From a virus (lineage: Duplodnaviria > Heunggongvirae > Uroviricota > Caudoviricetes): 45,439 nucleotides of DNA. Of the stretch, positions 24,002-32,124 are shown one piece after another. Made by a program: the position numbers and the translations under genes. Below the pieces are notes generated by a model that was not told where the DNA came from, ran no database searches, and saw only the letters and a list, made by a program, of their open reading frames with translations. Location of the stretch: the IMG/VR virus record IMGVR_UViG_2872678658_000002; one strand, written 5' to 3'. The first letter of the stretch is position 1, and every line of letters starts with the position of its first letter.

Positions 24002-24058
24002 AGCAATTTAGATAATCGTGCAGACTACGCCCCCTCATATCACATGGAAGGTACTACA

Positions 24059-24469
24059 ATGGCTCAGGTTGCCATTTTTAAACAAATATTCGATAAAGTG
24101 CGAAATAATTTAAACTATCACTGGTTTTATTCTGAACTAAAACGTCACAATGTCTCACATTACATTTACTATTTAGCCACAGAGAATATTCATCTTGTTC
24201 TTGAAAACGATAATACGGTTTTAATAAAAGGACAGGGTAAGGTTGTAAATGTAAGATTTTCAAAAAATAAATGCCTTATAGAAGCCACCTTAAAAGGATT
24301 CAAATCAGGAGAGTTATCATTTTACGAATACAGGAAAAATCTTGCTACAGCAGGGGTTTTCAGATGGATTACAAATATCCACGAAAACAAAAGGTATTAC
24401 TATACCTTTGATAATTCATTACTCTTTACTGAGAACATTCAGAACACTACACAAATATTTCCGCACTAA
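24059..24469 (+). CDS. DUF1398-family protein (YbcV-like)
   Basis: start set at ATG 24059 preceded by GGAAGG; AT-rich; sequence recalled as resembling DLP12 YbcV/lambda right-arm ORF. Confidence 0.5.
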
Positions 24470-25333: not shown

Positions 25334-25827
25334 CCCGGAAGCCCGGGGATCGTAATCTGCAGCTGGTTAGCCAGGGAGTTAATCTCAGCGACCAACACTG
25401 GCTTCGTATAGCGCCATGCTGCCAGCCCTTGTCCGCAGAAGCTCGCCATGTCTTTCTTCTGGTCAAACTCATGACATTTCATGTTGAGCTGCGCACTTAA
25501 GCTGTTGCGATGCTGAAGTTCTCCGGTGAAGTAGTCATCGAGGACTTTATAGGCCGCGTACTTGAACCCGGGGTTTAACCAAGCCGCATAATCGTAAGCA
25601 ACAAACTTCCCGCCATATGTTCCACCGTGTACACCGCGCTCAGTAAAAACCACAGATTCGTGGTTTTTCTCCAGCTCGGCTAAGAACTCTTTGGTCTGCT
25701 TGTTTCGCAGGTAGTGGTAAGGCGATTCAGATTCACTTTTACCACTGGCTTTCCACATATCAGTGAGGCAGATCATGCCATCTTCACCGATACGAATTGG
25801 TTGATTGAAGAGGGTTAATGATTTCAT
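25330..25827 (-). CDS. KilA-N domain protein
   Basis: 165 aa; N-terminal region (IRIGEDGMICLTDMWKASGKS...YLRNKQTKEFLAEL) fits the KilA-N pattern. Confidence 0.55.
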   Translation of the reverse strand: MKSLTLFNQPIRIGEDGMICLTDMWKASGKSESESPYHYLRNKQTKEFLAELEKNHESVVFTERGVHGGTYGGKFVAYDYAAWLNPGFKYAAYKVLDDYFTGELQHRNSLSAQLNMKCHEFDQKKDMASFCGQGLAAWRYTKPVLVAEINSLANQLQITIPGLPG

Positions 25828-25942
25828 AGCGTGTACCTACTCTTTGAAATGAACCTTTGCCGCACAGGAAACCAGCCCACCGAGGCTCGCCAGCACTAAC
25901 TGGTATCCTCAAAGGCCCATTCCAAAGGGGCAGGTTCGGTGT

Positions 25943-25967
25943 AAAAAACATGCGTTGCGGTACGCAT
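25943..25967 (-). terminator. candidate rho-independent terminator downstream of Rz/Rz1
   Basis: minus strand stem atgcgt-loop-acgcat followed by U-run (plus-strand A6 at 25943-25948). Confidence 0.4.
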
Positions 25968-26028
25968 TTATTGCAAAAAGCCCCGCATCGCGAGGCTCAT
26001 TAAATGGACTTTGTGATTTGCAAAAAAA

Positions 26029-26502
26029 TTATTTCAGGCATTGCGTCCTGATGTATTCCTGCAGGTAGTTAACCTGCGCGGTTATCTTGTCGATTCCACT
26101 TCGGAGACGGTAATAATTGAGTTCAGCATCTGCTGTAAGTCTTGGGCTTTCTCCATCGCCCATGCTGCTGGCTCCGGTCGTTGACTTTGCACAGGTGGCG
26201 GCGACTTGCAGGCGCTTACGACCAGCAGAAACATCAGCACGGAGACTTTCGATAGTCGCATTAGCATCAGCAAGCTCCTTTGTGTATCTGGCGTCGAGTT
26301 CTGCTACATCACGTTGACGCTTCCGCATGTCAGCGATGGTGGCGTTCGCCTTCTCCAGTTCACTGGCCTTGTTATCGCGCTGCTCTTTGTAGGCGATTGC
26401 GTTATCACGGTAATGATTAACAGCCCATGACAGGCAGACGATGATGCAGATAACCAGAGCATAAATAATCGCGGCGACTCTGCTCACTGATCTATCCCCC
26501 AA
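26029..26502 (-). CDS. Rz: spanin inner-membrane subunit Rz
   Basis: 157 aa, N-terminal TM then coiled coil, lambda/21 Rz-like. Confidence 0.85.
26082..26273 (-). CDS. Rz1: spanin outer-membrane lipoprotein Rz1 (embedded in Rz, +1 frame)
   Basis: 63-aa ORF wholly inside Rz; lipobox (VVSAC) and Pro-rich stretch. Confidence 0.75.
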
Positions 26503-27017
26503 CAGGCTAATGCGCTTTCCTGGTCACGACGAATAACCTGTCCATAGCAGTTATTTGAACGTATGCGGCAATCGCGCCCACCATCTTTTATCCACCAGCG
26601 AATCGCCTCGCATGCACCTTTACGATCACCGGCATTCAGCCGCTTATAAAACGTCGACGGGAAACACTTACCGGGGCCAATGTTATAGGGACAAAATGAC
26701 GCGATACCCGCTTTCTGTGGTTCGGTCAGTGGCACTTTAATATTGCGCTCCACCCATGCCAGCGCCTTATCCCGTTCAATGGCGTTAACCTGGTCGCATT
26801 TTTCCTTCGACAGTTTCATACCGGGAAAAACGGGTTTTCCATCCACCACCGTGGCACCCCGACAGATGGTCCAGATGCCGGAACCATCGCGGTATGCCGT
26901 TGTGTGGTTACCTTCTTTTTCATCCAGAAACTGGTCGAGAATATCAGGCGCAGGCGCACCGACGGCAATCAGTGCCAGAACGGCAGCCGACAGGCCGTAT
27001 CTGATTTTTGCGTTCAT
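26484..27017 (-). CDS. R: lysozyme (T4/P22-type, probable signal-anchor-release endolysin)
   Basis: 177 aa; N-terminal hydrophobic segment; E...D...T catalytic spacing in [16 protein letters not shown]. Confidence 0.8.
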
Positions 27018-27122
27018 GGATATTTATCAGGATTTATCGGTTTCTGAACCCTGGATATGTTTATCTGTCCCGGCCTGTTGAATCAGGCAAGGAATAGTTA
27101 AATACAATAGAGAGGATTGTTT

Positions 27123-27395
27123 ATGGACAATAGCACCATTTCTCTACAGGAGTTGCTCGACTGCATTTCCAGGCTTCGGGATGATGTAAATGCCCTTACT
27201 GTCGCATTTTCATATCTGGCATTCTCAATTCCCAAGGAACAAATGCAACCAACACTGGCATCGCTCCAGCTTGAATCACTCAACCCCAAATGGTCCCAGC
27301 AACAACAAAATTCTTTCAAGTGGCTGGCGGTATTACTGGAAGAAAAATATGCTGGTGAAATTACCATTTCGGCGGAGTCTTCAGAGAACCAGTAA
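27123..27395 (+). CDS. hypothetical protein encoded opposite to the lysis genes
   Basis: ATG at 27123 with GAGAGGA 6 nt upstream; TTGAAT...TACAAT promoter-like elements at 27078-27108; 35-nt convergent overlap with next gene. Confidence 0.4.
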   Translation: MDNSTISLQELLDCISRLRDDVNALTVAFSYLAFSIPKEQMQPTLASLQLESLNPKWSQQQQNSFKWLAVLLEEKYAGEITISAESSENQ

Positions 27396-27705
27396 TTCTT
27401 CCCGGTAGCTTTCCTTTGTAGGTTATCCACACATTCTGCGCCTCTAAAATTATGGGGCGCTTTTCCGGCGACAGCTCATCCCCTTCACATAACCCGGCAG
27501 CAACATCCAGGAAGACCTGTCTGATGCTCCTTCTGGCTGCTGCCTCATAAAACTCCAGCGCGGCACCTTCAACACGGTCCAGCGAGATGTCCAGGTCAAA
27601 AATTTCACCGTCAAAGCGTTTTTTGTCCCGTAACGCTAAAGTTACCGTAACTTTATTCTCAAAATTGCGGATCCCTTTCACAATCAGTTCATAGTTTTGA
27701 GTCAT
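27361..27705 (-). CDS. DUF1327-family protein (YdfR-like) between holin and lysozyme
   Basis: 114-aa ORF; sequence resembles remembered Qin YdfR, which occupies the same position. Confidence 0.55.
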   Translation of the reverse strand: MTQNYELIVKGIRNFENKVTVTLALRDKKRFDGEIFDLDISLDRVEGAALEFYEAAARRSIRQVFLDVAAGLCEGDELSPEKRPIILEAQNVWITYKGKLPGRITGSLKTPPKW

Positions 27706-27709
27706 TGAA

Positions 27710-27925
27710 TTACTCTCCCCGTGCAGCCTTACGCTTGTCTTCTCTGATTTTGAAGTACAGATTTGTCAGATAAGTCAGGAAGCCCAGAACCAGACTCCCA
27801 AGTACACCAATCGCAGCCCACTGTGACGGACTGACCTGATCAAGCCACTGTAAAAACCAGTAGCCAGCACTGCCTGCGGAGGTGCCGTAGGCAATGCCCG
27901 TTGAAATTTTGTCCATGGATTTCAT
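27710..27925 (-). CDS. S: phage-21-type pinholin S with dual-start motif (Met1/Met4)
   Basis: 71 aa [30 protein letters not shown]... matches remembered S21/EssD. Confidence 0.85.
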
Positions 27926-28047
27926 AGCCTCACCTCCGCAAATAACGGATGGCGTAGTTTTACACTGAGAAATGAAAGGGATTTGAAAAGAAAAGTAACC
28001 GGCTCATTTAAACCGTCTGGTCTGTTTCCTCCGGCTCTACAAAAATA

Positions 28048-28725
28048 ATGTCCATCATTTTTAATGGACACTATCGTATGAAACACCGGACCTGGATCAC
28101 TGAAGCTTTACGTCTTCACTTTGAAGAACATTTACCCCGGGTTGTGGCCGGGCGTCGCCTGGGTGTACCAAAATCAACAGTTTGTAGTATGTTCGTGCGC
28201 TTTCGGAGAGCTGGCCTTTCGTGGCCTTTGCCCGCAGGCATGTCGGAGCAGGAACTTGATGCCTGCCTTTACGGACAATTTTCCACGGTACCAGTCGTAC
28301 GTCCTGAAAGCACCGTTATATCCGAAGCCCCCGTGGTAAAAAAACGTCCCCGGCGGCCCAACTTCCCTTATGAGTTTAAAATCGCCTTAGTGGAGCAGTC
28401 ACTGCAGCCCGGAGCCTGTGTGGCGCAGATCGCCCGGGAAAACGGAATCAACGATAACCTGCTCTTCAACTGGCGCCATCAATACCGGAAAGGTGGCCTG
28501 CTGCCTTCCGGAAAAAATATGCCGGCACTGCTTCCCGTGACGTTAACGCCGGAGCCGGATAATAAAATCCCGGCCCCCGCACAGGAACCAGAGCAGATAA
28601 ATACACCGTCCGACAGTCTGTGTTGTGAGCTGGTTCTGCCGGCCGGAACTCTCAGGCTTAAAGGTAAACTGACGCCGGCGTTATTACAGACACTTATCCG
28701 CGAAATAAAAGGGAGCAGCCACTGA
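28048..28725 (+). CDS. tnpA: IS66-family accessory protein TnpA (HTH)
   Basis: 225-aa ORF, HTH-like segments; first of three IS66-type ORFs. Confidence 0.7.
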   Translation: MSIIFNGHYRMKHRTWITEALRLHFEEHLPRVVAGRRLGVPKSTVCSMFVRFRRAGLSWPLPAGMSEQELDACLYGQFSTVPVVRPESTVISEAPVVKKRPRRPNFPYEFKIALVEQSLQPGACVAQIARENGINDNLLFNWRHQYRKGGLLPSGKNMPALLPVTLTPEPDNKIPAPAQEPEQINTPSDSLCCELVLPAGTLRLKGKLTPALLQTLIREIKGSSH

Positions 28726-29072
28726 TGATATCTCTCCCTGCAGGTTCGCGTATCTGGCTGGTTGCAGGTATCACCGATATGCGAAATGGCTTTAACGGCC
28801 TGGCATCAAAAGTTCAGAACGTCCTGAAGGATGACCCGTTCTCCGGACACCTGTTCATCTTCCGCGGACGCCGGGGTGACCAGATAAAAGTGTTGTGGGC
28901 TGACAGTGACGGACTGTGCCTCTTCACCAAACGCCTGGAGCGGGGCCGCTTCGTCTGGCCAGTCACCCGTGACGGCAAGGTGCACCTTACTCCGGCTCAG
29001 TTATCCATGCTTCTTGAAGGTATCAACTGGAAGCACCCGAAACGAACGGAACGCGCTGGAATCCGCATATAA
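28725..29072 (+). CDS. tnpB: IS66-family protein TnpB (orfB)
   Basis: 115 aa, typical IS66 orfB size and sequence, start overlapping tnpA stop. Confidence 0.85.
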   Translation: MISLPAGSRIWLVAGITDMRNGFNGLASKVQNVLKDDPFSGHLFIFRGRRGDQIKVLWADSDGLCLFTKRLERGRFVWPVTRDGKVHLTPAQLSMLLEGINWKHPKRTERAGIRI

Positions 29073-29091
29073 CCCGTTGTAAAGTGAGGAT

Positions 29092-30663
29092 ATGGACACC
29101 TCACTTGCTCATGAGAACGCCCGCCTGCGGGCACTGTTGCAGACGCAACAGGACACCATCCGCCAGATGGCTGAATACAACCGCCTGCTCTCACAGCGGG
29201 TGGCGGCTTATGCTTCCGAAATCAACCGGCTGAAGGCGCTGGTTGCGAAACTGCAACGTATGCAGTTCGGTAAAAGCTCAGAAAAACTTCGTGCAAAAAC
29301 CGAACGGCAGATACAGGAAGCACAGGAGCGAATCAGCGCACTTCAGGAAGAAATGGCGGAAACGCTGGGTGAGCAATATGACCCGGTACTGCCATCCGCC
29401 CTGCGCCAGTCTTCAGCCCGTAAACCGTTACCGGCCTCACTTCCCCGTGAAACCCGGGTTATCCGGCCGGAAGAGGAATGCTGTCCTGCCTGTGGTGGTG
29501 AACTCAGTTCTCTGGGATGTGATGTGTCAGAGCAACTGGAGCTTATCAGCAGCGCCTTTAAGGTTATCGAAACACAACGTCCGAAACAGGCCTGTTGCCG
29601 GTGCGACCATATCGTGCAGGCACCAGTACCTTCAAAACCCATTGCACGCAGTTATGCCGGAGCGGGGCTTCTGGCCCATGTTGTCACCGGGAAATATGCA
29701 GACCATCTGCCGTTATACCGCCAGTCAGAAATATACCGTCGTCAGGGAGTGGAGATGAGCCGCGCCACGCTGGGGCGCTGGACCAGTGCTGTTGCTGAAC
29801 TGCTGGAGCCGCTGTATGACGTCCTGCGCCAGTATGTGCTGATGCCCGGTAAAGTCCATGCTGATGATATCCCCGTCCCGGTCCAGGAGCCGGGCAGCGG
29901 TAAAACCCGGACAGCCCGGCTGTGGGTCTACGTCCGTGATGACCGTAACGCCGGTTCACAGATGCCCCCGGCGGTCTGGTTCGCGTACAGTCCGGACCGG
30001 AAGGGTATCCATCCTCAAAATCACCTGGCCGGTTACAGCGGTGTGCTTCAGGCCGATGCTTACGGTGGTTACCGGGCGTTATACGAATCCGGCAGAATAA
30101 CGGAAGCCGCGTGTATGGCTCATGCCCGGAGAAAAATCCACGATGTGCATGCAAGAGCGCCCACCTACATCACCACGGAAGCCCTGCAGCGTATCGGTGA
30201 ACTGTATGCCATCGAGGCAGAGGTCCGGGGCTGTTCAGCAGAACAGCGTCTGGCGGCAAGAAAAGCCAGAGCCGCGCCACTGATGCAGTCACTGTATGAC
30301 TGGATACAGCAACAGATGAAAACACTGTCGCGTCACTCAGATACGGCAAAAGCGTTCGCATACCTGCTGAAACAGTGGGATGCACTGAACGTGTACTGCA
30401 GTAATGGCTGGGTGGAAATCGACAACAACATCGCAGAGAACGCCTTACGGGGAGTGGCCGTAGGCCGGAAAAACTGGATGTTCGCGGGTTCCGACAGCGG
30501 TGGTGAACATGCGGCGGTGTTGTACTCGCTGATCGGCACATGCCGTCTGAACAATGTGGAGCCAGAAAAGTGGCTGCGTTACGTCATTGAACATATCCAG
30601 GACTGGCCGGCAAACCGGGTACGCGATCTGTTGCCCTGGAAAGTTGATCTGAGCTCTCAGTAA
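29092..30663 (+). CDS. tnpC: IS66-family transposase TnpC
   Basis: 523 aa, N-terminal coiled coil/leucine zipper, Cys-rich zinc ribbon, DDE-like core. Confidence 0.85.
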
Positions 30664-31428: not shown

Positions 31429-32124
31429 TCAATCTACTTTTGCAACACTTTGCTTTGAAAATGCCGCCTTTTGTTTTGAACGTGTTCTCATTACAAACAA
31501 TAAAGCCTCACTATCAAGTCGGTGAAAAATGTGTTTCATTGCAACCCAGTGACGAGTAAATGTTTTGGACCAGTTTTTAGTTGTCACTCCCGCCAGTAAT
31601 GCCAGCTCCTGGTATTCATAACCTTCCCCACCAAAAAGTTCTGCTTTTACTGCCTGCGCCGCCAGCCAGATTAATTTTTTCAGGCGTTCCTGCGTTTTCC
31701 CTGCAATTTTTCTGGTACCGGATTGAGTATTAAATTCATTCCACGCCCACTGTGTTATCGCGATCTGATATTCCCAACAAATACTCCCGCTGTAACACCA
31801 CAACAACCAGGCTTTATGATGTTCTTCAAGAGACAGAACAGCCCGCCGCCACGATGATGTCGAAAACTCAACCGGACTGACCAGAGGTATTGACGTCCCC
31901 TTCGCCAGCGATTGCTTTCCCGGGATTGGTGGATTATCCCGCGTTATCATTTTTCCAGTCACTTCATCGCGGTACCGGATTTTTTTTCGCCTGTAACGCC
32001 CTGTATCGAACATGGCATTCTCTTGCCAGGCTTCAAGCTGACCTTTTGTTGCCCCACTCAAATCAGCGGTGGCGATAATGAGCTGCTCACGCACAAACTG
32101 TAAATACTGGTTATTCATGCGCAC
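31429..32124 (-). CDS. putative late-gene antiterminator Q (QuuQ-like)
   Basis: 231 aa; position immediately upstream of terminator hairpin, tRNAs and lysis genes; resembles remembered E. coli prophage Quu proteins. Confidence 0.5.
   Translation of the reverse strand: MRMNNQYLQFVREQLIIATADLSGATKGQLEAWQENAMFDTGRYRRKKIRYRDEVTGKMITRDNPPIPGKQSLAKGTSIPLVSPVEFSTSSWRRAVLSLEEHHKAWLLWCYSGSICWEYQIAITQWAWNEFNTQSGTRKIAGKTQERLKKLIWLAAQAVKAELFGGEGYEYQELALLAGVTTKNWSKTFTRHWVAMKHIFHRLDSEALLFVMRTRSKQKAAFSKQSVAKVD

Follow-up and report, generated by a model that had tools for sequence, protein, structure and literature searches.

Convergent or antisense control is known in temperate phages from pR/pL interference in coliphage 186, lambda oop, and P22 sar. 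There, regulation comes from transcription itself or from a non-coding RNA, and it is directed at one specific developmental gene. A different kind of opposite-strand gene is represented by lambda bor and by the iraM-like, ynfO, and ydfO/DUF1398 genes, which lie in or next to the Q-S-R-Rz region. Bor-type genes should be expressed from the prophage without a need for Q, and Bor itself is a lipoprotein with a serum-resistance phenotype. Morons of lambdoid phages were described by Juhala et al. 2000 and are reviewed in PMC3594210, and the definition of a moron in PMC3594210 was applied here. One annotated moron, HK022 gene 23 (“srb”), lies between the tail genes I and J and has a convergent 81-nt overlap with the moron gene 22; nothing informative on srb was found in the literature.

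Here, we analyzed a window of 45,439 nt (IMG/VR virus record IMGVR_UViG_2872678658_000002, Caudoviricetes), which carries a lambdoid lysis cassette of the P21 type on its minus strand. The cassette contains a P21-type class II (S-type) holin gene (27710-27925; PF04971, E=1.4e-35), a 114-aa gene of the YdfR family (DUF1327) in the late lysis operon (27361-27705; Pfam E=4.1e-42, with 142.8 bits against a Pfam gathering cut-off of 25), a phage lysozyme (endolysin) gene (26484-27017; PF00959, E=1.4e-24), and an Rz gene with an embedded Rz1 frame (26029-26502). On the plus strand, between lysozyme and holin, a 90-aa ORF occupies 27123-27395, and its stop-proximal region overlaps that of ydfR convergently by 35 nt (27361-27395). 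An earlier note on this DNA had placed a 90-aa plus-strand ORF and a 114-aa DUF1327 ORF in this interval with a 35-nt overlap of their 3' ends, and the coordinates and the Pfam match agree with it in each respect.

The Q antiterminator gene (31429-32124, minus strand) is separated from the holin gene by an IS66-family element on the plus strand (28048-30663), which comprises an HTH_Tnp_1 ORF, TnpB_IS66, and a DDE_Tnp_IS66 transposase. Because this element sits between Q and the lysis genes, the prophage is perhaps defective. The insertion probably uncouples the lysis cassette from pR'; the lysis operon may have been cut off from its promoter, while the plus-strand gene would not be. Another plus-strand accessory gene, a DUF1398 (ydfO-like) gene, lies in the terminase-lysis interval (24044-24469; E=3.3e-43), and related prophages have ynfO and iraM-like genes on the same strand as it. 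The 90-aa ORF resembles these and lambda bor in being on the opposite strand, with the difference that it is inside the cassette, between ydfR and R, whereas bor-type genes come after Rz.

We consider it likely that the plus-strand ORF is a moron, lodged head-on in a lambdoid late lysis operon at a site of cargo exchange between the lysozyme gene and ydfR. On comparative evidence, the ORF is a genuine conserved gene. The plus frame is open in all seven diverged copies compared, where variable sites at codon positions 1, 2, and 3 number 15, 11, and 33, overall pN/pS is 0.27 (0.17-0.42 across alleles, with dS up to 0.56), and synonymous changes are in excess (binomial P=7e-6). The antisense frame that shares its third positions shows the expected shadow signal, yet has stops in several alleles. 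The plus-strand ORF is intact in 78 of 80 viral contigs carrying it in IMG/VR, and a 341-nt segment that includes it was found in 1121 of the 5426 complete E. coli genomes (~21%); in E. coli, the site and the length of 273 nt are constant, and the ORF adjoins ydfR each time. The earlier note had named a lack of conservation in related prophages as the finding that would count against its reading, and conservation was what we found.

This gene, present in roughly one in five complete E. coli genomes, is already annotated, as a hypothetical protein (the PGAP label), and the exact 90-aa protein is present on at least 999 contigs. The protein matches PHROG 2411 with E=1.6e-59 over residues 1-90 of 90; the family carries no annotation, so membership is silent on function. 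No match to the protein was found in Pfam or NCBIfam, and a scan of IMG/VR proteins returned near-identical E. coli prophages only. The anti-phage defence profiles of PADLOC-DB gave no match at E<=1 for either the plus-strand protein or YdfR, and no paper found mentions the protein accessions or PHROG 2411.

The product is acidic (90 aa, 10.2 kDa, pI 4.3) and has no hydrophobic span, signal peptide, or TM segment, and is in this respect unlike the lipoprotein Bor. An AF2 model based on the family alignment (pLDDT 82.5) contains helices at residues 8-34, 38-52, and 59-76, followed by a C-terminal tail (81-90) with a confidence below 50, which is the part encoded by the overlap. Structure searches with this three-helix model gave no informative fold match. 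Leucines 11, 18, 25, and 32 form a heptad in helix 1 and are nearly invariant over the wider family, which suggests that helix 1 is a coiled-coil-like binding helix. Coding constraint and the model together lead us to expect an acidic, cytoplasmic protein of 10 kDa with three helices, the first of which carries the leucine heptad. Its most likely mode of action is to bind another protein, either from the host or from an incoming phage. A role in lysogenic conversion or in phage exclusion is a reasonable possibility for the gene.

A profile search over 1.84 billion representatives gave only 20 hits. The distant homologues, with ~26-64% identity, all match PHROG 2411, and their settings differ widely. 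Two of them (L014 and L112) lie on the opposite strand between the tail genes M and L, one (L011) is near terminase, one (L021) is beside an autotransporter gene, and a Citrobacter homologue (L023, 64% identity) is located upstream of a different holin/CHAP-endolysin/Rz cassette. In Serratia, chromosomal homologues (L025 2971-3252; L019 5001-5279) occupy the position X in the order pyrC-dinI-X-bssS-solA. Because homologues are found in tail operons and on the Serratia chromosome, the family has no fixed association with lysis genes or with ydfR, and as far as its distribution indicates, it is not lysis-specific. Overlaps of 7-20 nt also occur at the 3' ends of other homologues, and the small ORFs that overlap them are mutually unrelated. 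A two-gene module formed with the convergent partner was rejected, as the partners are unrelated to one another.

The chromosomal branch is conserved in Serratia, Chania, Gibbsiella, Sodalis, and relatives, always in the dinI-bssS interval and with no phage genes nearby. This points to an origin of the PHROG 2411 family in the host, or to a use of it there. Conceivably, the clade was acquired from, or contributed to, a Yersiniaceae chromosomal gene adjoining dinI.

The signals upstream of the gene were compared among alleles. The earlier note had proposed a promoter composed of TTGAAT (27078-27083) and TACAAT (27103-27108), and the comparison did not support it. The two elements are 19 nt apart, the equivalent of TTGAAT differs among alleles (TTGCCT, CTGAAT), and a sigma-70 consensus scan did not call the pair; over 1.7 kb, the scan found 1 site where chance alone predicts 2.3. 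The distance from the end of TACAAT to the ATG is 14 nt, and a transcript from this element would lose the Shine-Dalgarno (SD) sequence, since a start ~7 nt downstream falls inside the SD. The pair is probably not the promoter.

A portable 46-nt block at the 5' side (27016-27061) is the better supported candidate on comparative grounds. It is nearly invariant among E. coli alleles and can be aligned with a block found upstream of many other small antisense genes. The block contains a candidate -10, TATGTT (27056-27061), separated by 17 nt from a candidate -35, TTTATC (27033-27038). In 67 of 76 unique cassettes, TAnnnT is in register (T 91%, A 96%, T 91%), and the hexamer ends 7 nt before the conserved RNA start; the position of TATGTT reads CAGGTT in a relative that lacks the ORF. 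The TTTATC/TATGTT pair has a consensus score of 7/12 and includes no good -35. We infer a start near 27068, where host RNA polymerase would initiate from a weak sigma-70-type promoter in the 46-nt block, and this predicted start gives a 55-nt leader containing the SD. In E. coli AR_451, an ISEc52 copy (L007 1252-2421) lies 41 nt upstream of the ATG; the insertion takes out the 46-nt block while the plus-strand ORF stays intact, so this is a natural deletion allele of the candidate promoter.

The region 27062-27122, which includes the leader, varies among alleles more than any other stretch of the locus, with GAGGATT(A/G)TTTATG conserved in all of them. The GAGAGGA that the earlier note had taken for a ribosome-binding site is indeed present (27110-27116), with its core GAGGA (27112-27116) 6 nt from the ATG, and this SD, which the predicted leader would offer to ribosomes, is conserved among alleles. 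An inverted repeat GCCTG-N6-CAGGC in the leader (27073-27077/27084-27088) is kept in most alleles, with 6 bp in one and 4 bp in another and with no compensatory changes. A LexA box upstream of the gene was considered and rejected by eye, as the palindrome is CTG-N9-CAG and not N10. Downstream, a terminator scan of the plus strand called no terminator-like site after 27395. A weak hairpin followed by UUUU at 27438-27464 (7 bp, 9-nt loop, 43 nt past the plus-strand stop; fold z-score -0.16, non-significant) is a possible weak terminator, and Rfam gave nothing at E<=1 over 25800-28200.

The predicted promoter would be independent of the Q antiterminator, so that the gene could be expressed in a lysogen. 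Expression from the repressed prophage would most likely be Q-independent and low-level. After induction, Q-modified polymerases from pR' would run over the weak plus-strand promoter and silence it, and not the reverse.

Comparison of related phages indicates that the lysozyme-ydfR junction is a hot spot for the exchange of small cargo genes. Perceval and two contigs (L147 and L191) follow the window collinearly across the lysozyme gene; their homology stops exactly at 27061 and resumes at 27454 or 27545, inside ydfR. In Perceval, this site holds an unrelated 79-aa plus-strand ORF (exchange region L236 1495-1884), and its YdfR has yet another C-terminus. In four unrelated phage loci (L128, L189, L208, and L221), 27016-27061 is the sole stretch shared with the window. 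Phage 611R1 has no plus-strand ORF and is 274 nt shorter; it still has the two termini of the module, with the final codons and stop of the ORF among what is kept, and looks like a deletion derivative. The PHROG 2411 cargo occupies ~1250 places in E. coli against 4862 for ydfR, or about a quarter. The GC content of the module is 42.6%, compared with 47.7-52.4% for ydfR, holin, lysozyme, and Rz and 51.8% for the whole window.

Features expected of a moron are present in that the gene is absent from 611R1 and K-12 Qin and replaced in Perceval, L147, and L191, and in that its GC content deviates. For a promoter of its own, the TATGTT block is a candidate supported by comparison, with the consensus score of 7/12 given above. 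On the plus strand after 27395, no terminator of its own was found, and in this the gene is unlike the moron model. The window gene shares with HK022 srb the small size, the orientation opposite to the late operon, the variable presence, the atypical GC content, and the same kind of 5' promoter block. The two differ in that srb has a full structured leader (92.6 bits with the covariance model R1, described below) and the window gene does not. The lack of a good -35, of a canonical terminator, and of a structured leader in the E. coli alleles are points against the moron reading, as is the IS66-family element between Q and the lysis genes.

The exchange of cargo also bears on the overlap. The 35 nt encode the low-confidence tail of the plus-strand protein together with the last 11 codons and the stop of YdfR. 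In the Qin prophage of K-12, ydfR abuts the lysozyme gene and the plus-strand ORF is absent, and the YdfR proteins of K-12 and the window have only residues 1-68 in common. The Citrobacter homologue is faced by a 238-aa ORF that is unrelated to YdfR and is not DUF1327. The overlap DNA is also present at the end of this homologue, and the final 12 residues of the 238-aa ORF (KITGSLRVPMKL) are shared with YdfR (RITGSLKTPPKW), as each of the two genes runs into the same end of the module. The overlap sequence is thus part of the plus-strand module: ydfR, which lacks a stop codon of its own ahead of the module, continues into the module's 3' end and so comes to overlap the ORF. The earlier note had seen in the overlap a possible means of control over one gene or over lysis; as its DNA is part of the plus-strand module, cargo and partners vary, and the family extends beyond lysis loci, this role is not borne out. 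In sequence terms, the overlap looks like a by-product of cargo swapping and not a lysis control device, and its codons would specify a disordered tail on the plus-strand protein and a replaceable tail on YdfR. The overlap itself need not be regulatory.

In YdfR (27361-27705, minus strand, in the window; L010 6055-6366), the N-terminal ~68 aa, the part reported to bind the N-terminal domain of RNase E (PMC13232886), are conserved. The C-terminus is mosaic and varies with the downstream content among K-12 Qin, the types of the window and of 611R1, and Perceval. The C-terminus is mosaic because ydfR reads into interchangeable cargo. The only literature found on DUF1327 or ydfR is a paper on an interaction with RNase E (PMC13232886).

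It remains to weigh other explanations of the locus. One is that plus-strand transcription, or the plus RNA, acts in cis as an antisense regulator, which interferes with the late lysis operon through polymerase collision or pairing with the ydfR-R mRNA, and so tunes lysis timing or silences leaky holin and endolysin expression in lysogens. The convergent geometry and the 35-nt overlap are consistent with it, and 61 of 99 related cassette genes are 3'-overlapped by a convergent ORF (a raw count with no control set). Because no strong terminator follows the plus-strand ORF, its RNA could also run antisense into ydfR and the holin gene. The locus resembles 186 pR/pL, oop, and sar in its convergent units with overlapping transcripts, of which the overlap of the ORFs is what is seen in the window; it differs from them in that the RNA encodes a protein under selection and the partner varies between phages. 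In addition, the overlap partner changes with every context, and the partners are mutually unrelated. Late transcription by Q-modified polymerase is resistant to termination and much stronger than that from a weak promoter, so any interference should run from the late operon onto the plus-strand gene, which is the other direction from that proposed. We regard cis-antisense regulation as unlikely, because the ORF is under purifying selection at the protein level, the family also occurs at sites without lysis genes (tail operons, the Serratia chromosome), and read-in accounts more simply for the overlap sequence.

Another explanation takes the plus-strand gene as a functional partner of YdfR in a two-gene convergent module, for example as a lysogen-expressed antagonist of an RNase E-binding or RNA-binding late protein. 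Residues 1-72 of K-12 YdfR bind the N-terminal domain of RNase E, and the protein co-purifies RNA (PMC13232886); K-12 YdfR perhaps binds RNA besides RNase E. These properties would suit such a partnership, as would the position of the ORF beside ydfR in all E. coli cases and the Citrobacter copy, which likewise faces a gene ending in a YdfR-like tail. However, only about a quarter of ydfR copies have the plus-strand ORF, the Citrobacter partner is not DUF1327 and has only the 12 read-in residues in common with YdfR, other homologues have no ydfR nearby, and unrelated cargo genes fill the same site beside ydfR. A dedicated pairing with YdfR is accordingly very unlikely. That the ORF is not a gene at all, but a frame left open by chance or as the shadow of a feature on the minus strand, is hardly credible in spite of the “hypothetical protein” annotation of its product, given a pN/pS of 0.17-0.42 among alleles with dS up to 0.56, the stops that interrupt the minus-strand shadow ORF in other alleles, the conserved SD, and homologues with 26-57% identity in independent genomic contexts.

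In related loci, the promoter/leader cassette is a more unusual item than the window gene. An element of ~80 nt between the TAnnnT -10 and the start codon precedes many different small phage genes, with carriers that include the phage-borne distant homologues, HK022 gene 23, mEp213 gp72, and well over a hundred IMG/VR contigs. It lies at 1499-1579 in L234 (HK022), 873-952 in L235 (mEp213), 1499-1587 in L236 (Perceval), 4925-5004 in L014, 3919-4002 in L011, and 2922-3002 in L023, and is also found in L114-L233. The consensus consists of TCAGCC, hairpin 1, a linker, GAGG-GAUGGCUGAUUA-CCUC, the SD, and the ATG, and the loop GAUGGCUGAUUA is invariant. Among 63 sequences, 95.9% of cells pair and 10 of 13 hairpin pairs show double changes, while none of 500 shuffles reached the observed pairing values. 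The structure is placed on the sense strand of the small gene because G.U pairs are frequent. A pseudoknot P1 (UCAGCC with GGCUGA) showed no covariation or compensatory changes.

The leader element has no match in Rfam 15. The covariance model R1, which we built from it, finds the leader upstream of three homologues outside the training set (35-48 bits) and gives 35-80 bits for the phage-borne distant homologues. In the window, its best hit has E=2.6, with nothing at 27062-27122, and the leader was not found in the E. coli alleles or the chromosomal copies. The cassette leader may be a new cis-regulatory RNA; an mRNA stabiliser, a riboswitch, and a translational operator are candidate roles.

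More tentatively, the window gene could be one cargo of an undescribed system that is widespread in temperate siphophages, a possibility we consider doubtful at present. Such a system would combine a portable promoter and, usually, a two-hairpin (possibly pseudoknotted) leader acting as a regulatory RNA with highly diversified proteins of 50-100 aa encoded head-on in late (tail or lysis) operons, the lysozyme-ydfR junction being one hot spot. Its products would be modulators expressed in the lysogen, for example superinfection-exclusion or host-regulator-binding proteins. Homology between PHROG 2411 and Srb-like cargo is unestablished (hhalign E=0.0033, probability 9.7%). The cassette could serve the systematic finding of antisense small genes in phage late operons. 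Cassette-driven genes encode 50-100 aa, and 96 of 97 are antisense to the flanking long ORFs; many of the products are small helical proteins, and DUF1883 proteins and a zinc-ribbon protein are also among them.
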